In this document: piece by piece, positions 1 to 5,644 of the stretch | Numbering within the stretch: position 1 is the first letter of the stretch | How the letters are laid out: every line of letters begins with the position of its first letter | Virus record (IMG/VR): IMGVR_UViG_2534682252_000030 | Reading direction: 5' to 3' (one strand) | Source of the DNA: a virus | Taxonomy: Duplodnaviria; Heunggongvirae; Uroviricota; Caudoviricetes | DNA: 5,871 bases | The notes under the pieces: generated by a model | Database searches by the model: none | What the model saw: only the letters and a program-made list of their open reading frames with translations | Told to the model about the DNA's origin: nothing | Made by a program: the position numbers and the translations under genes

Positions 1-461
1 GATCATCGCTTCAGTTCCTGTATCAGCAGAGTCAGGAGCTTTTCGCTGACATTGCCATTGAAGCGGAGCGTCCCGTGCCGGAACGTTACCTCACAGCTGA
101 TACTGAGGGTTTCCGGGTCCTCTGCGAGCGATTCTGGCTGTTCGGCAGCTGCGTCGAGAGTCACAGGAAGTAGCTGGGGGCTCTCTGAAGAAGGTAATAG
201 CAGCTTTCCCTCGCGCCATTGTTGTCGCCATTTGAACAACAGATTGGCGTTAATGCCATTTTCAAGAGCAAGTTTTGAGATGGATATCCCGGGTTCACAG
301 GAGGCAGCAACGAGCTGCTGTTTAAATTCGGGAGGATAATTAGGGCAGCCTTTTCGCCTGCCGGGAGTCACATTTTTCTGCATATCTGATACTTTGGTTC
401 CCACTACTTATTTGGTGGACACCACTTTGTCTAATTCGTCAGATTCTGACCAGACGGTTCA
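1..461 (-). mobile_element. Inner end of an IS66-family-like insertion sequence; element continues past window start, exact terminus not resolvable (between 384 and 461)
   Basis: tnpA-like ORF at 3-383 replaces the expected large-terminase gene directly after a truncated Nu1-like ORF. The minus-strand sequence at the junction begins TGAACCG, and its TGA is the stop codon of the truncated ORF. No canonical IS66 GTAAGCG-type end was seen and the other end is outside the window. Confidence 0.4.
3..383 (-). CDS. IS66-family TnpA-like (orf1) accessory transposase protein; ATG at 383 preferred over the GTG at 404 used by the ORF track
   Basis: Translation MQKNVTPGRRKGCPNYPPEFKQQLVAASCEPGISISKLALENGINANLLFKWRQQW has the HTH pattern of IS orfA proteins. 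The C-terminus CEVTFRHGTLRFNGNVSEKLLTLLIQELKR resembles the conserved C-terminal block of IS66 TnpA as I recall it. No obvious Shine-Dalgarno sequence. Confidence 0.55.
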   Translation of the reverse strand: MQKNVTPGRRKGCPNYPPEFKQQLVAASCEPGISISKLALENGINANLLFKWRQQWREGKLLLPSSESPQLLPVTLDAAAEQPESLAEDPETLSISCEVTFRHGTLRFNGNVSEKLLTLLIQELKR

Positions 462-734
462 GGCTGTACGCTTTTTTAACTGCTGTGTAACAGCCTGTTC
501 TGCTGTCAGTTCCCATCTGGCAATAAGCAATTTCTCCTCATAGTCGTCTTCGCTATCGCCATCAGGCACATCGTTTTTACTTCTCCTCAGATACGATATG
601 TAAAAATCGCGCCAGGCATCCAGATCCAGTTGCCCTCGCTTATTCGATATCGGGGCACCCGGCAATTTCTGCAATCTGCGAAGCTGGCGATCGGTCAGAC
701 TTAAATGCCTGGCAACTTCAGTCTGCGTAGCCAC
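459..734 (-). CDS. Terminase small subunit, Nu1-like, N-terminal ~91 codons only (truncated; likely pseudogene)
   Basis: Starts about 195 bp from cosN, as lambda nu1 does. Has an N-terminal HTH-like segment (VARHLSLTDRQLRRLQ) and a C-terminal stretch ELTAEQAVTQQLKK resembling lambda Nu1 RLTRAQADAQELKN near residue 90-100. GTG start preceded by GAGGTGAGGA. Lambda Nu1 is 181 aa; this ORF stops at the IS junction. Confidence 0.55.
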   Translation of the reverse strand: MATQTEVARHLSLTDRQLRRLQKLPGAPISNKRGQLDLDAWRDFYISYLRRSKNDVPDGDSEDDYEEKLLIARWELTAEQAVTQQLKKRTA

Positions 735-1128: not shown

Positions 1129-1353
1129 ATGTCAACGAAGAACAGAACCCGCAGAACAACAACCCGCAACATCCGCTTTCCTAACCAAATGATTGAACAA
1201 ATTAACATCGCTCTTGATCAGAAAGGTTCAGGTAATTTTTCAGCGTGGGTTATTGAAGCCTGCAGAAGAAGATTAATTAATGAAAAACATGCTCAATTTG
1301 TACCCAACAAAGACAAACACGACCAGAGCACCTGTTCAGACAGGTTTACTTAA
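1129..1353 (+). CDS. Small ribbon-helix-helix-like DNA-binding protein, YlcI/YnfO (DUF3950)-like prophage protein, 74 aa
   Basis: Complete ORF with ATG. RNIRFPNQMIEQINIALDQ...NFSAWVIEACRRRL fits a beta-strand/helix/helix Arc-MetJ pattern. The N-terminus MSTKNRTRRTTTRNIRFPNQMIEQINIAL matches my recollection of the K-12 DLP12/Qin YlcI/YnfO proteins. Followed by an intrinsic terminator. Confidence 0.55.
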   Translation: MSTKNRTRRTTTRNIRFPNQMIEQINIALDQKGSGNFSAWVIEACRRRLINEKHAQFVPNKDKHDQSTCSDRFT

Positions 1354-1434: not shown

Positions 1435-1749
1435 TTAGCATTTTTTTGTACCGCGCGTTTCCGGACGTATTCTGTTCTCCTGTCCCTTTATATCGTCGGA
1501 ATACCCGCCGCTCTTCAAATCCCATTCCCAACTCAGAATGTAGTCTGTTGACCGCTTGTTTATTTCTGTCAGGTTCATCGGTGAAACCGGAGTCCGGCGC
1601 GCCTTACGCAAACACTCTGCTCGTTTCTGTGCCGCCACTTTTCTTTTCTGGTCATCACTTAGCTGTACCATCACTTTTGCCCATCGTTCAGCTGCTCTCC
1701 GGTACAGTCCTTTTTTCTCCAGACATTCTGCCAGGTGATCATGTAGCAT
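1435..1749 (-). CDS. PerC-family-like transcriptional activator (Pch-like), 104 aa; assignment by motif memory
   Basis: ATG at 1749 with GGAGG 7 nt upstream. N-terminal motif AECLEKKGLYRRAAERW resembles the conserved PerC-family block. Lysine/arginine-rich. Sits in the moron position between Rz and cos, behind a 460-bp AT-rich region. Confidence 0.45.
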   Translation of the reverse strand: MLHDHLAECLEKKGLYRRAAERWAKVMVQLSDDQKRKVAAQKRAECLRKARRTPVSPMNLTEINKRSTDYILSWEWDLKSGGYSDDIKGQENRIRPETRGTKKC

Positions 1750-2213: not shown

Positions 2214-2681
2214 TCACGGTATACACTGGGTACGGATATATTCCTGTGCTCCTTCCAGTTGCTTCTGCATTGCCATCAGCCGTTCTCTGAGGATGAAATA
2301 ATCCCGTTCAGCGGCTTCTGCCAGTCGGGGACCGGTTGCATTATCCACGCCGGAGGTGATGGGGGCTTTACGCAAGGAGCCTGGACAGTTGGCGTTGATG
2401 CGCAGGCGCTTACGACCAGCGGCAACATCAGCACGCAGAGTTTCATTTTCAGCTCTCGCATCGGCTAATTCCCTCGAGTATCTGGCATCAAGTGCAGCGA
2501 CATCACGCTGGCGTACCTGCATATCAGTAATTGTCACGTTCGCCAGCTTCAGCTCACTGGCTTTTTTATCGCGTTGCGCTTTGTAGGTAATGGCGTTATC
2601 GCGGTAATGATTCAGCCCCAGACTAAGCACACCACAGGCTACCAGCAGGACAATAATCACCACACACAGAACACGGTTCAT
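2214..2681 (-). CDS. Rz: Rz i-spanin (inner-membrane spanin subunit), 155 aa
   Basis: MNRVL...[45 protein letters not shown]...[20 protein letters not shown] aligns along its length with lambda Rz. N-terminal TM segment present. Confidence 0.9.
2276..2461 (-). CDS. Rz1: Rz1 o-spanin lipoprotein, embedded in the +1 frame of Rz
   Basis: [20 protein letters not shown]...[32 protein letters not shown] matches lambda Rz1, including the lipobox (VVSAC) and proline-rich core. True start may be the internal Met at about 2446. Confidence 0.85.
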
Positions 2682-2688
2682 ATCCCCC

Positions 2689-2820
2689 TCACCCCACCAG
2701 CCATGACAAAGTTAAGACGCGCCAGGCAGTGGAAAAGCAAATAGCAACCAGCATTAGTGAAAATGAAATGCCGACGATTACACAGAGGATCTTCGCCAGC
2801 GTTATGAGCTTGTCTGACAT
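2689..2820 (-). CDS. Small hydrophobic membrane protein, 43 aa, unknown function
   Basis: ATG at 2820 preceded by AGAGGA. Translation [43 protein letters not shown] is almost entirely a TM helix. Its TGA stop overlaps the Shine-Dalgarno of Rz. It is in the same frame as the upstream 60-aa ORF, separated only by TGA plus 12 nt. Confidence 0.45.
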
Positions 2821-2832
2821 GCTTAATCCTCT

Positions 2833-3015
2833 TCACGATTTCAACGCAATGACCAGTTTTGCCAGCCCATACAGCATCGGAGACACAGCAATACCGACCG
2901 CCACCCACTTAATAGCAAAAGCCAGCGCTCTGCTGACGTCATCAGTTACAGGCGCTTTCAGTTCAAGGCCGTTTTTCATAGTCAATCTCAACAGAATTCG
3001 TTTATACTTTCCCAT
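2833..3015 (-). CDS. Small tail-anchored membrane protein, 60 aa, unknown function
   Basis: ATG at 3015 with AGGGAG 5 nt upstream. MGKYKRILLRLTMKNGLELKAPVTDDVSRALAFAIKWVAVGIAVSPMLYGLAKLVIALKS has a basic N-terminus and a C-terminal TM helix. The 86-aa form in the ORF track starts at a GTG inside a terminator hairpin and is less likely. Confidence 0.45.
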   Translation of the reverse strand: MGKYKRILLRLTMKNGLELKAPVTDDVSRALAFAIKWVAVGIAVSPMLYGLAKLVIALKS

Positions 3016-3049
3016 GTTCTCCCTTGCCTTACTCAAGGTCAGAAACACA

Positions 3050-3080
3050 AAACCCCGTTTGCGGCCAACAAACGGGGTTT
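3050..3080. terminator. Intrinsic terminator hairpin between the endolysin gene and the small membrane-protein ORFs (bidirectional in form)
   Basis: Perfect 12-bp stem AAACCCCGTTTG (3050-3061) / CAAACGGGGTTT (3069-3080) with loop CGGCCAA. T-rich tract follows on both strands. Confidence 0.7.
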
Positions 3081-3170
3081 TACTTTTATTCACTTAGTTT
3101 TTGCCAGTTCGCAGGATTTCGTGTTATCCGCCAGTGTGAGCAAACCGCATTTTTCAGCAAAATATTCTGC

Positions 3171-3704
3171 TTATCTGTCAATTCCCCAGCACGCCAGCGC
3201 GCTCTCCTGGTCACGCCGTGAAACCTGACCGTAGCAGTTGTTTGAGCGAATACGGCAGTCTCTGCCACCGTCCTTAATCCACCAGCGAATCGCCTCACAC
3301 GCTCCCCTGCGATCACCTGCATTAATTCGTCTGTAAAACGTCGACGGGAAACACTTACCGGGACCAATGTTGTACGGACAGAATGACGCGATCCCCGCTT
3401 TCTGGGGTTCGGTCAGCGGTACTTTAATATTGCGCTCCACCCACTCCAGCGCCTTATCACGTTCAATGGCGTTAACCTGGTCGCATTTTTCCTTCGACAA
3501 CTTCATGCCCGGAACGACAGGTTTACCATCCACCAGGATGGCACCGCGGCAGATGGTCCAGATACCCGCACCATCACGGTATGCCGTGGTGTGGTTACCT
3601 TCTTTTTCGTCAAGAAACTGGTCGAGGATTTCAGGCGCAGACGCCCCTGCACCAATCAGCGCCAGAACGGCAGCCGACAGGCCGTATCTGATTTTTGCGT
3701 TCAT
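3171..3704 (-). CDS. R: Phage lysozyme (GH24, T4-lysozyme-like) with N-terminal signal-anchor-release-type segment; RrrQ-like, 177 aa
   Basis: Intact ORF. N-terminal weakly hydrophobic Gly/Ala-rich segment YGLSAAVLALIGAGASA. Catalytic E-x8-D-x5-T motif in EGNHTTAYRDGAGIWT. Close to my recollection of the K-12 Qin prophage lysozyme. Confidence 0.85.
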   Translation of the reverse strand: MNAKIRYGLSAAVLALIGAGASAPEILDQFLDEKEGNHTTAYRDGAGIWTICRGAILVDGKPVVPGMKLSKEKCDQVNAIERDKALEWVERNIKVPLTEPQKAGIASFCPYNIGPGKCFPSTFYRRINAGDRRGACEAIRWWIKDGGRDCRIRSNNCYGQVSRRDQESALACWGIDR

Positions 3705-3754
3705 GGATATTTATCAGGGTTTATCGATTTCAAATCCCTGGATATGTTAAGTCT

Positions 3755-4098
3755 TCAGGCCAGCGGTGGAGTCTTCAGAGAACCCGTAATTATTCCCGGT
3801 AGTTTTCCTCTGTAGGTTATCAACACATCCTGCGCCTCTAAAATTACGGGACGCTTTTCCGGTAACGGACCATCCCCTTCACATAACCCGGCAGCAACAT
3901 CCATGAAAAACTGCTTCGCCTGCTTTTTCGCCTCAGCTTCGTAAAACTCCAGCGTGGCACCTTCAGTACGGTCAAGACTAATCGCCACATCTGGCAACAA
4001 CAGTGACGGATACCCACCAATTTCCGGTGCCACAGTAACAGTAATCTTATCCGGGTAATTATTTATCCCTTTAACACCCAGTTCGTATTTTTCTTCAT
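3755..4098 (-). pseudogene. YdfR-like (DUF1327-like) small protein gene between holin and endolysin, disrupted by an apparent 1-nt deletion in an A5 run
   Basis: ATG at 4098 with GGGGGGAG 7 nt upstream opens MKKNTNWVLKG then stops. One extra A in the A-run (4088-4092) would join it to the long open frame MKKKYELGVKGINNYPDKITVTVAPEIGGYPSLLLPD...TPPLA ending at 3755. The track ORF 3755-4033 is the GTG-initiated tail of that frame. Family name is from memory of Qin gene order (essQ-ydfR-rrrQ). Confidence 0.45.
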
Positions 4099-4102
4099 CG
4101 CT

Positions 4103-4306
4103 TTACTCCCCCCGCGCCGCCTTACGACGGTCCTCTCTGATTTTGAAATACAGGTTAGTCAGATACGTCAGCAGGCCAAACAGCAGACTCCCAGCACACC
4201 GATTGCCACCCACTGGACGGAGAGACTTTGTCCAGCAGCTGCAGTAACCAGTATCCCGTCCCACCGCTGACGTGGTGTATGACACACCTGTTGTGATTTT
4301 TTCCAT
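4103..4306 (-). pseudogene. S: Class II pinholin (S21 / EssD-like) gene carrying three apparent single-nucleotide deletions
   Basis: The annotated frame gives [16 protein letters not shown]...[28 protein letters not shown], with a holin-like N- and C-terminus but a scrambled middle. The holin-like middle appears in the other two frames: [14 protein letters not shown], then QWVAIGVLG. Frame switches fall near 4260-4267, 4215-4218 and 4190-4192, each in a G or C run. Confidence 0.7.
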
Positions 4307-4351
4307 CTGATGTATGTCTCCGTCACCGCCGACAGAAAATGAAAGTAAAGG

Positions 4352-4386
4352 AAAACAAAAAGCCGCCAGTGTCGCCCACTGACGGC
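4352..4386 (-). terminator. tR'-like intrinsic terminator upstream of the holin gene (site expected for Q-dependent antitermination)
   Basis: On the minus strand: 10-bp stem GCCGTCAGTG / CACTGGCGGC (one G-U pair), loop GGCGA, then TTTTTGTTTTCC. Lies 46 bp upstream of the holin ATG. Confidence 0.6.
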
Positions 4387-4464
4387 CAACGCCGGGAGCC
4401 GTGATTATGGCATTCAGGCTCTGCTAAAAATGCCAGATAACATTCCGGCTCCCCCCCCTGATTC

Positions 4465-4493
4465 AGGTTATAAATGACACAATATCTTGACAA
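4465..4493 (-). promoter_or_regulatory. Candidate late promoter (pR'-like): -35 TTGTCA, 17-bp spacer, -10 TAACCT on the minus strand
   Basis: Position is right relative to the tR'-like terminator and holin gene, and the -10 hexamer fits TAnnnT. The motif match is weak and no Q-binding site can be defined by eye. Confidence 0.25.
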
Positions 4494-4568
4494 CACCCAT
4501 CACTGTCTGTCAGAAAATGTACTGCCAGATATAAGTATCATGTGAAACCCAACTATCCTTCTTAGCCA

Positions 4569-4571: not shown

Positions 4572-4596
4572 TGAACCGCCCCGGAAATCCTGGAGA
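4572..4596 (+). repeat. IS left inverted repeat (IRL)
   Basis: TGAACCGCCCCGGAAATCCTGGAGA; matches the reverse complement of the right end at 22/25 positions. Confidence 0.8.
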
Positions 4597-4625
4597 CTAA
4601 ACTCCCTGAGAAAGAGGTAAACAGG

Positions 4626-4952
4626 ATGACTAAAAATACTCGTTTTTCCCCCGAAGTCCGTCAGCGGGCGATTCGTATGGTTCTGGAAAGTCAGGATGAA
4701 TATGACTCACAGTGGGCGGCAATTTGTTCCATTGCCCCAAAGATTGGCTGTACGCCGGAGACTCTGCGTGTCTGGGTTCGCCAGCATGAGCGGGATACCG
4801 GGGGCGGTGATGGTGGGCTCACCAGCGCTGAACGTCAGCGTCTGAAAGAGCTGGAACGTGAAAATCGTGAACTGCGCCGCAGTAACGATATCCTTCGCCA
4901 GGCTTCCGCTTATTTTGCGAAGGCGGAGTTCGACCGCCTCTGGAAAAAATGA
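4626..4952 (+). CDS. IS3-family transposase OrfA (HTH / leucine-zipper DNA-binding component), 108 aa
   Basis: [22 protein letters not shown]...[34 protein letters not shown] is a typical IS629-group OrfA. SD-like GAGG upstream. Confidence 0.85.
4943..4949 (+). other. Candidate -1 programmed frameshift site (A-run) at the orfA/orfB overlap
   Basis: A6 run 4944-4949 directly before the orfA stop TGA (4950-4952), with orfB in the -1 frame starting ATGATG at 4949. IS3-family transposases are normally made as an OrfAB fusion by -1 frameshifting on an A-rich heptamer. Confidence 0.5.
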
Positions 4953-5602
4953 TGCCACTGCTGGATAAGCTGCGTGAGCAGTACGGGGTCGGACCGGTAT
5001 GCAGCGAACTGCATATTGCCCCGTCAACGTATTACCATTGTCAGCAACAGCGACATCATCCGGATAAACGCAGTGCCCGTGCGCAGCACGACGACTGGCT
5101 GAAGAGAGAGATACAGCGCGTATACGATGAAAATCATCAGGTGTACGGTGTGCGTAAAGTCTGGCGTCAGTTGTTACGGGAAGGAATCAGGGTGGCCAGA
5201 TGTACAGTGGCACGTCTCATGGCGGTTATGGGACTTGCCGGTGTTCTCCGGGGTAAATGGGCCCGTCGTCCGTCTGGCACCATCCATCACAGCGATAAAG
5301 GCTCTCAGTATGTGTCACTGGCCTATACGGAGCGACTAAAAGAAGCCGGATTACTGGCATCAACAGGGAGTACAGGCGACTCGTATGACAACGCGATGGC
5401 TGAGAGCATCAATGGTCTTTACAAAGCGGAGGTAATACACCGTAAGAGCTGGAAAAACCGTGCAGAAGTGGAACTGGCCACACTAACGTGGGTGGACTGG
5501 TATAACAATCGACGATTGCTGGGAAGGCTGGGCCATACTCCTCCGGCAGAAGCAGAAAAAGCTTATTATGCTTCCATCGGAAACGATGATCTGGCAGCCT
5601 GA
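4949..5602 (+). CDS. IS3-family transposase OrfB (DDE catalytic component) with an in-frame internal deletion of about 75-80 codons; probably catalytically dead
   Basis: 217 aa versus roughly 290 aa for IS3-family OrfB. Only about 11 residues separate GVLRGK from HHSDKGSQY (second catalytic Asp), where full-length proteins carry about 80 residues including the first Asp (D.TY motif). Downstream [15 protein letters not shown] block is intact. Junction near 5255-5260. Confidence 0.75.
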
Positions 5603-5619
5603 GTTCACAGATAAAACAC

Positions 5620-5644
5620 TCTCCAGGAAACCCGGGGCGGTTCA
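5620..5644 (-). repeat. IS right inverted repeat (IRR)
   Basis: Reverse complement reads TGAACCGCCCCGGGTTTCCTGGAGA. Confidence 0.8.

Follow-up and report, generated by a model that had tools for sequence, protein, structure and literature searches.

Lambdoid phage lysis is among the best-understood timing systems and is taught as the work of four proteins: holin, endolysin, Rz and Rz1. Here we describe two small genes, open reading frames (ORFs) 1 and 2, that lie between the endolysin gene R and the i-spanin gene Rz in a 5,871-nt stretch of viral DNA from an E. coli prophage (IMG/VR record IMGVR_UViG_2534682252_000030; the whole stretch is referred to below as the window), in which all the lysis-cassette features are on the minus strand. 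In its long form, ORF1 (2833-3015, minus strand; ATG at 3015-3013, TGA at 2835-2833) encodes a peptide of 60 aa, and ORF2 (2689-2820, minus strand; ATG at 2820, TGA at 2691-2689) encodes a 43-aa peptide with a single transmembrane (TM) segment. Our tentative reading is that both are accessory membrane peptides of the late operon, ORF1 being type-I-toxin-like and controlled by an antisense RNA and a terminator, ORF2 being coupled to the spanin genes, and both plausibly tuning lysis.

Among the closest described systems is hokW-sokW of the Stx2 prophage Sp5, whose type I toxin, HokW, was shown to favour release of the phage (PMC8621323). ORF1 resembles hok/mok/sok in that it specifies a hydrophobic single-TM peptide within a prophage, in that a predicted cis-antisense RNA with a promoter and an intrinsic terminator covers its initiation region and, in some alleles, in a short upstream frame whose stop overlaps the start of the toxin-like gene, as in mok-hok. 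In contrast to hok/sok, it has no sequence relation to Hok (PF01848) or to the Rfam antitoxin RNAs, its TM helix is C-terminal, and the gene is located in a late operon between endolysin and spanin; the likeness is one of sequence layout, with the RNA and the toxicity as predictions. Dual-start holin/antiholin genes (S105/S107 of lambda and S68/S71 of phage 21) also specify a small lysis-cassette membrane protein and have two in-frame starts, each with a ribosome-binding site, and the predicted longer ORF1 product of the window allele, as in those pairs, would add basic N-terminal residues. Unlike holins, ORF1 matches no holin hidden Markov model (HMM), has one C-terminal TM domain (TMD) instead of two or three, carries an extension of 12 residues (not 2-3) that is not always basic, coexists with canonical holins of several classes, and lies downstream of the endolysin gene.

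Lambdoid morons and other cargo (ant in Stx phages; bor and lom; gp15 of HK97) share with the R-Rz insert a low G+C content, variable presence and terminator boundaries, and the insert occupies the site taken by ant or a DNA methyltransferase gene in relatives; unlike morons, it shows no sense promoter, its terminator is upstream of the gene, and ORF2 is fused to the expression signals of Rz. The Mu gp25 releasin (DUF2730) is a small single-TMD protein encoded near an endolysin of the signal-anchor-release (SAR) type, which modulates lysis and is not a holin; its TMD is N-terminal and is followed by a 73-aa acidic cytoplasmic domain (PMC9239132). ORF1 likewise encodes a small single-TMD protein near a SAR endolysin, and its identification as a Mu-type releasin was rejected, given that it has no DUF2730 match, that its TMD is C-terminal and that it also accompanies GH19 and M15 endolysins. 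By HMM, the two peptides belong directly to PHROG families (phrog_1115/4493/3246 for ORF1 and phrog_4906 for ORF2), entries labelled 'unknown function' that add no mechanism, and PGAP lists both as hypothetical proteins in O157:H7 (WP_001303555.1 and WP_001280929.1, respectively). They are an uncharacterised family within known kinds, namely small phage membrane toxins or lysis accessories.

Coding capacity and distribution of ORF1 and ORF2

A preliminary description of this stretch had placed two small membrane-protein ORFs, each with its own ribosome-binding site, behind a terminator between R and Rz. This was confirmed: from the R stop (3171) to the Rz ATG (2681) the insert measures 489 nt and comprises, in order, a non-coding block, a hairpin, a 33-nt leader, ORF1, a 12-nt spacer and ORF2. 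The purine-rich tract AAGGCAAGGGAG precedes the ORF1 ATG, and the spacer (AGAGGATTAAGC; 2821-2832, minus strand) contains the Shine-Dalgarno sequence of ORF2, AGAGGA.

Purifying selection in frame 0 only, the constant length of ORF2 and the PHROG matches indicate that ORF1 and ORF2 are real protein-coding genes. The phrog_1115 HMM was matched by the whole of ORF1 (E 6.6e-42; residues 1-60, profile positions 8-67 of 67), and phrog_4906 by the whole of ORF2 (E 7.3e-24; residues 1-43, positions 7-49 of 49). The pooled ratio of non-synonymous to synonymous differences (pN/pS) for ORF1 was 0.27 in frame as against 1.35 and 3.0 in the shifted frames, and the window and Salmonella alleles differed by 21 synonymous and 11 non-synonymous changes (pS 0.56, pN 0.10). 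For ORF2, comparison of the window with three alleles of the same C-terminal type (the L002/L101 alleles) gave 11-12 synonymous and 2-4 non-synonymous changes, a 14-sequence alignment had 16 invariant columns, and the gene was exactly 43 codons long in nearly all the evaluable IMG/VR loci (73/74). A longer, GTG-started version of ORF1 (86 aa, 2833-3093) was rejected, since it would run through the hairpin.

These results bear on the possibility that both ORFs are decaying, non-functional prophage remnants. The window prophage is indeed degraded, with IS3 and IS66 elements and frameshifts in the holin gene and ydfR, and chimeric or truncated copies of the peptides exist (P0081, P0094, L079). 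Nevertheless, both ORFs are under purifying selection, the length of ORF2 is exact, and each gene occurs in phages that form plaques or can be induced, such as the PhiR12 series and Stx phages. In addition, at least 80% of a 651-nt locus (2600-3250) was found in 985 of 5426 complete E. coli genomes (~18%), often at 100% identity, and both exact peptides were present on about 1000 contigs. We regard mere decay as very unlikely.

Hydropathy analysis detected one TM segment in ORF1 (best 19-aa window 1.90) and showed ORF2 to be almost wholly hydrophobic, also with one TM segment. AlphaFold2, run on a 12-sequence alignment, modelled ORF1 as two helices, a short basic one (residues 3-15) and one of 37 residues (23-59), with a mean pLDDT of 70. 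Hydropathy and model together indicate that ORF1 is a single-pass membrane peptide anchored C-terminally, with a basic N-terminus, in agreement with the earlier account of a 60-aa ORF1 of this topology and of a 43-aa ORF2 that is almost all TM, for which the support came from hydropathy. No lipobox was seen in ORF2 on inspection; a weak 'LCV' resemblance between ORF2 and the N-terminal TM segment of Rz was noticed by eye, with the idea of a relic in mind.

The 60-aa form of ORF1 consists of MGKYKRILLRLT followed by a core of about 48 aa (MKNGLE.DAP...A.AFAI(K/R).vA....YG.A.LI.), and the C-terminus of the family takes one of three forms, ALKS, IRWW or PLIxxLK. The family is small and restricted to Escherichia/Salmonella-type phages. 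A profile search of 1.84 billion representative proteins (E<=1e-3) returned 25 cluster representatives, nearly all of them family peptides of 20-90 aa; it gave no link to a known family, and two multi-stretch matches were located in unrelated long proteins. Scanning a one-genome-per-species contig set with the ORF1 alignment yielded no confirmed relative.

The earlier account could place neither ORF in a known holin, antiholin, Hok-type or entericidin family, and the searches bore this out. Pfam, NCBIfam and PADLOC scans of ORF1, ORF2 and their hypothetical fusion revealed no relative (a bCoV_viroporin match at E 0.25 was noise). At E<=1, the PADLOC anti-phage defence models gave no match, and neither did the Pfam holin models (e.g. 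PF04971, PF05106 and PF16080) for ORF1, ORF2 and 10 distant ORF1 relatives. Known toxin and antitoxin families (Hok, Ldr, Ibs, TisB, ZorO; Sok, Rdl, Sib and others) were negative in Pfam, NCBIfam and Rfam, the PDB sequence search returned only chance DARPin matches, and the only Rfam match in the whole window was an IS3 ALIL pseudoknot. Papers on Stx-phage lysis cassettes, on small RNAs (sRNAs) of enterohaemorrhagic E. coli prophages and on Pas sRNAs do not mention the locus.

The relation between the two ORFs was examined in 83 related sequences (80 IMG/VR loci, two annotated database loci and the window). In the window they share one frame, separated by a single TGA and 12 nt, and the ORF2 stop sits inside the Rz Shine-Dalgarno sequence (GGGGTGAGGGGGATATG), all as first described. 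Such an arrangement could belong either to a bicistronic pair or to one protein of about 108 aa with two TM segments, made by read-through of the opal codon (TGA); besides the shared frame, a single fused database protein (P0040, TGA to GGA) speaks for the latter. The pair was upheld and read-through was refuted as a conserved feature, leaving it almost no probability: the spacer is 14 nt long (AGGGAGGATTAAGC) in 48/83 loci, which puts ORF2 out of frame (12 nt in 33/83), and ORF2 has a conserved Shine-Dalgarno sequence and ATG. The ORF1 stop, for which TGG or CGA had been envisaged in relatives, was TGA in 83/83 loci.

The same comparison did away with the notion of a single two-ORF module. 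In tblastn searches ORF2 was full-length in all the phage records with a match (276/276), almost all of them Stx1- or Stx2-converting phages in which it is mostly unannotated, and ORF1 was found in only 14 phage records. In IMG/VR, the gene before ORF2 was ORF1 in 48 loci and ant in 24, as judged by pattern match; two loci were unclassified in this respect, and the one inspected (L142) had Ant. The gene order in Stx phages is R, ant, ORF2, Rz, without ORF1, and ORF1 is found without ORF2 in Salmonella, in phage GER2 (L106) and in other cassette types. Profile-profile comparison showed the peptides to be unrelated (probability 2%). Since their distributions differ, ORF1 and ORF2 appear as two independent units.

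ORF2 is closely joined to the gene that follows it, which is normally Rz: in every allele, and whatever that gene may be, either 8-9 nt separate the ORF2 stop from the following ATG or the stop overlaps the following GTG. With its stop codon embedded in the start signals of the following gene (ribosome-binding site or start codon), ORF2 is predicted to be translated just before Rz and in concert with the i-spanin. This position also suits the explanation that ORF2, and perhaps ORF1, is mainly a translated spacer, with a peptide of little or no function, which brings ribosomes to the Rz start after insertions had split Rz from R. Lambda-type R overlaps Rz, as in the K-12 prophages DLP12 and Qin, which have nothing in between; the ORF2 stop is found at the start signals of Rz, of a methyltransferase gene or of an ORF1 copy; and the C-terminal half of ORF2 is mosaic, the first 26 residues being almost invariant, the C-terminal 17 being of two main types, and about 10% of the alleles having this half frameshifted with the stop in the same position. 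Against it stand the strong amino-acid conservation of ORF2 described above, the good Shine-Dalgarno sequence that Rz has of its own, and the fact that a coupling ORF need not remain a 43-codon TM helix across 276 phages. Selection acting on the peptide argues that ORF2 is more than a ribosome-delivery device, and we consider the spacer explanation unlikely.

Further arrangements of the small genes were observed. In L036 a gene for a 311-aa DNA methyltransferase-like protein (3337-4272) lies between ORF2 and Rz and begins 9 nt after the ORF2 stop, as Rz does elsewhere. Tandem arrays of small TM-peptide genes are present in L076 (2068-2646), L032 (2719-3032) and L088 (2356-2668): the array in L076 consists of ORF1, ORF2, a truncated ORF1 copy with its GTG start on the ORF2 stop, and a 28-aa 'IRWW' paralogue, and in L088 two paralogues stand directly next to each other. 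Proteins that are ORF2'-ORF1 chimeras were also found (P0081 and P0109).

Initiation region of ORF1

Upstream of ORF1 is a GC-rich hairpin (3049-3081, both strands; AAAACCCCGTTTG-TTGGCCG-CAAACGGGGTTTT) with an A-run on its 5' side, a T-run on its 3' side and a folding energy of about -21 kcal/mol. The consensus terminator scan scored it on the plus strand, that is, antisense to the cassette, and visual inspection shows the minus-strand version (CAAACGGGG then TTTTGTGTTT) to be just as good. Because T-runs flank both sides, it is predicted to be a bidirectional intrinsic terminator. Every lineage had a hairpin upstream of its ORF1 homologues, and at least five different stem sequences were represented. 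In an 11-sequence alignment, 93% of the cells were paired, as against 58% when partners were slid by one column; at 4/13 pairs both sides change in a compensatory manner, and the observed covariation score was reached in 0/500 shuffles. The T-run on the antisense side was present in 7/7 hairpin versions and that on the sense side was usual; L097 has lost the sense-side T-run and kept the antisense side, with another sense terminator already 20 nt upstream. In L025, which has ant upstream, homology begins on its left side immediately ahead of the hairpin. These comparisons indicate that the hairpin belongs to ORF1 and moves with it.

A promoter-like site antisense to ORF1 and aimed at the hairpin was detected at 2979-3008 on the plus strand (TAGTCA, 18 nt, TATACT). 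Homologous sites were found in four of the five lineages that bear the N-terminal extension: the window, L083 (Salmonella), L086 (TTGGCC-16-TATACT) and L105 (TGGACA-18-TATACT, 10/12). In L086 and L105 the site was the only promoter-like match in a 400-nt scan, for which shuffles predict 0.2-0.3, and in L083 it was one of two, with 0.8 expected. The TATACT hexamer is invariant and the adjoining triplet varies (TTT, GTT or GGT). On the sense strand, the scans of the window, L083, L086 and L105 gave no promoter-like site in the interval from the hairpin to ORF1.

Transcription from this site to the hairpin would yield a cis-antisense RNA of about 76-78 nt (~3015-3091, plus strand), complementary to the start codon of the long form, its Shine-Dalgarno sequence and the leader. 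The predicted RNA folds into a 5' stem-loop and the terminator (-24.5 kcal/mol, z = -3.7) and matched no Rfam family. A short cis-antisense RNA is a candidate product of the ORF1 initiation region.

The same region holds two in-frame starts. The short form of ORF1 (48 aa; 2833-2979, minus strand) begins at the internal Met13 (ATG at 2979-2977), which is invariant and is the start in many homologues. A GAGG lies 6-9 nt upstream of the Met13 ATG in 11/12 aligned representatives, the window allele being the exception with GAGA (2989-2986); this GAGG is built from rare AGG Arg codons or from wholly different codons, and persists in sequences without the N-terminal extension (L094, L097) or with another one (L086, L088). 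The long-form start of the window carries a strong ribosome-binding site of its own, and in the distant members P0249, P0263 and P0265 the protein sequence of the extension ('KYxRI...', 12-18 aa) is conserved. Since both starts have Shine-Dalgarno sequences and the extension itself is conserved, two ORF1 products of 60 and 48 aa are likely. Both forms, with their one TM helix, are small hydrophobic peptides of the kind (below 60 aa) that characterises type I toxin-antitoxin systems.

The ORF1 leader (3016-3048, minus strand) contains a small hairpin, CCTTG (3038-3034)/CAAGG (3026-3022), whose stems are invariant and whose loop varies among lineages, and the Shine-Dalgarno sequence GGGAG (3023-3019). 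Between the window and Salmonella, one change was counted in 45 nt of the 5' region of ORF1; the 48-codon core (144 nt) had 32, almost all of which lie 3' of the conserved 45-nt stretch. Because the 5' nucleotides are far more conserved than the TM-coding part, this pattern points to constraint on the nucleic acid itself.

An upstream ORF (uORF) of eight codons, M-G/C-REV-L/C-SL, was observed in the Salmonella and GER2 alleles, its TGA overlapping the GTG start of the long form (~2478-2504 in L083 and L091-L093; ~1470-1500 in L106). The uORF of L105 (~1470-1515) is different and has 13 codons, and the window allele has lost the 24-nt uORF segment.

Position in lysis cassettes and possible roles

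ORF1 was found between endolysin and spanin genes in at least four unrelated types of lysis cassette: S21 pinholin with SAR lysozyme (the window), holin_2_3 with lysozyme (L083-85 and L093, Salmonella), lambda-S-type holin_3_1 with GH19 endolysin (L092), and two holins with an M15 peptidase (L105, phiSTEC1575-Stx2k). It has the same position in phage GER2 and follows Ant in L025 and L091. This recurrent endolysin-spanin position is the main argument for a lysis-related role of ORF1. In the L105 cassette, a gene for a predicted 60-aa lipoprotein (1655-1837; lipobox LLVGC) directly follows the ORF1-like gene, and no obvious i-spanin is annotated.

The R-Rz intergenic regions of related prophages, proposed for comparison in the preliminary description, proved to be a variable swap site. 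The contents of the junction were ORF1 and ORF2, ant and ORF2, ant and ORF1, ORF1 and ORF2 with a DNA methyltransferase gene, ORF1 with a 28-aa paralogue, or a row of four small peptide genes; examples are L025, L032, L036 and L076.

This variability is also what would be expected of classical morons, that is, of ORF1 and/or ORF2 being expressed in the silent prophage and benefiting the lysogen, through superinfection exclusion or altered membrane function, with no role in lysis. The insert has a G+C content of 0.47, below R (0.55) and Rz (0.53), and is polymorphic in presence and in copy number (1-4 small peptide genes); in composition and in variable presence it therefore behaves as morons do. 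ORF1 relatives are located at terminator-flanked cargo sites, and the module stays 100% identical within a decaying, IS-ridden prophage. However, morons have a promoter of their own upstream and a terminator downstream, and here the terminator is upstream in the lysis cassettes; no sense promoter was found from the hairpin to ORF1 in any lineage scanned, the only promoter-like site facing the opposite way. A terminator placed immediately ahead of the genes speaks for their being silent in the lysogen, every allele of ORF2 is joined tightly to the Rz start, and the PADLOC models were negative. A moron role is possible, and we hold it to be somewhat less probable than the lysis-linked reading with which we began.

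Under the reading of ORF1 and ORF2 as late-operon accessory peptides, ORF1 would be a mobile cassette made up of the bidirectional terminator hairpin, a structured leader, a dual-start gene and a probable cis-antisense RNA. Its 60-aa form would carry a basic amphipathic N-terminal extension, and the 48-aa form, from Met13, would be the core. In the silent prophage, the antisense RNA, with its promoter inside the segment coding for the extension and its end at the hairpin, would mask the ribosome-binding site of the long form. Upon induction, Q-modified RNA polymerase would read through the hairpin, so that ORF1 and ORF2 would be made together with holin, endolysin and spanin, and late mRNA would be made in amounts too great for the antisense RNA to keep up with. 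The ORF1 peptide would then enter the inner membrane and disturb it, altering when the holin fires and when the SAR endolysin is released, and ORF2 would probably act at the membrane, with the spanin or just before it. The late-only expression, the antisense RNA, the membrane activity and the effect on lysis timing are inferred from the layout of the locus. A bolder version, in which ORF1 is a new hok/mok/sok-like family that sets pinholin firing and SAR endolysin release by depolarisation, and ORF2 a near-universal fifth lysis protein of Stx phages working with Rz/Rz1, is doubtful.

Several observations weigh against the lysis-linked reading. ORF1 relatives also occur outside lysis cassettes, namely after tail-fibre genes, between a polyvalent protein gene and DUF1353/hok, and between the SASA esterase gene and the prophage end, sometimes as tandem paralogues; these sites fit a general accessory or moron role as well as they fit a role in lysis. 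ORF1 and ORF2 are missing from lambda, phage 21 and the K-12 prophages, which lyse, or are organised, in their absence, and neither gene is therefore essential for lysis. The antisense promoter-like site overlaps coding sequence and scores only 9-10 of 12; L088 keeps TATACT without a -35 element, so that the site was not detected there, and in L094, without the N-terminal extension, the region is absent. The extension is acidic in some relatives (L086), so that the extra positive charge is not universal. The frameshifted ORF2 alleles raise the prospect that only the first ~26 residues may matter. Lastly, literature searches by peptide sequence, WP accession and PHROG identifier, as well as the literature on lysis cassettes and type I toxin-antitoxin systems, contained nothing on ORF1 or ORF2.

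In Stx phages the release of toxin depends on lysis, and whatever alters the timing of this step is therefore relevant to virulence and to the outcome of induction by antibiotics. A conserved, usually unannotated peptide gene beside Rz in 276 sequenced phages, nearly all of them Stx phages, is of interest in this regard. Were ORF1 toxin-like and ORF2 linked to the spanin, both would influence the timing and the amount of Shiga-toxin and phage release; even as exclusion or cargo genes, they would provide a concrete target for deletion tests and a candidate new family of small toxin and antisense RNA.

Prophage context

The lysis cassette of the window begins with an S21-type class II holin gene (4103-4306, minus strand), which is frameshifted, and continues with a DUF1327/YdfR gene (3755 to ~4098, minus strand). 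The gene upstream of the insert is R, a SAR-type lysozyme (3171-3704, minus strand; Pfam Phage_lysozyme, E 1.5e-24) with the N-terminus MNAKIRYGLSAAVLALIGAGASAP, and the one downstream, abutted by ORF2, is the Rz i-spanin gene (2214-2681, minus strand; Pfam Phage_lysis, 2e-46) with Rz1 embedded in it (2276-2461; 4e-19). DUF1327/YdfR is a further uncharacterised resident of such cassettes, and K-12 Qin has one too.

Between R and the hairpin is a conserved non-coding block (3082-3170, minus strand), recognised in an alignment of 42 variants, which is kept with R regardless of the next gene (ORF1 or ant). In Stx2 phage 86 it is likewise present and is followed by a different hairpin, and in the ant phages a different terminator hairpin follows. 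The block includes a hypervariable 16-nt patch and a small hairpin (GGCGGAT...ATCC); the Salmonella version of this hairpin is GGCGGATAACACAAAATCCGCC.

The window was 99.7% identical to an O157:H7 prophage region, with R through Rz identical. Relative to this O157:H7 counterpart, the holin gene has three 1-nt deletions (4263, 4217 and 4193) and ydfR has one frameshifting 1-nt deletion (4093) and three substitutions; the four single-base deletions fall within 170 nt. These frameshifts could be real decay or an assembly error of the homopolymer type. The disruption of the resident pinholin, already pointed out in the preliminary description, is therefore present in the window, and the link drawn from it to the inserted genes did not hold: the R-to-Rz stretch is 100% identical in genomes with an intact holin, and because R through Rz is identical to the O157:H7 relative, the module is older than the holin damage and unrelated to it.

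The non-coding stretch upstream of the holin gene (~4310-4560, minus strand) contains two terminator-like hairpins (4387-4361 and 4449-4432) and gave no Rfam match. A 2026 preprint (10.64898/2026.05.13.724894) locates the prophage sRNAs PasA/PasC/PasD1 between the sialate esterase and holin genes. Further upstream is an IS3-family element (4572-5642, plus strand) with orfA (4626-4952) and an orfB (4949-5602) of only 217 aa; its ALIL frameshift pseudoknot (4907-5023) was detected by Rfam at 121 bits. By comparison with O157:H7 PV15-279, the insertion point of the element is some 40 nt downstream of the SASA esterase gene.

Downstream of Rz there is a very AT-rich stretch (~1750-2200), followed by genes for a PerC-family regulator (1435-1749, minus strand), a YlcI/YnfO family protein (1129-1353, plus strand) and a truncated NohA-like small terminase (459-734, minus strand), and by an IS66-family accessory ORF (3-404, minus strand). 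This segment is a degraded prophage bounded by IS elements.

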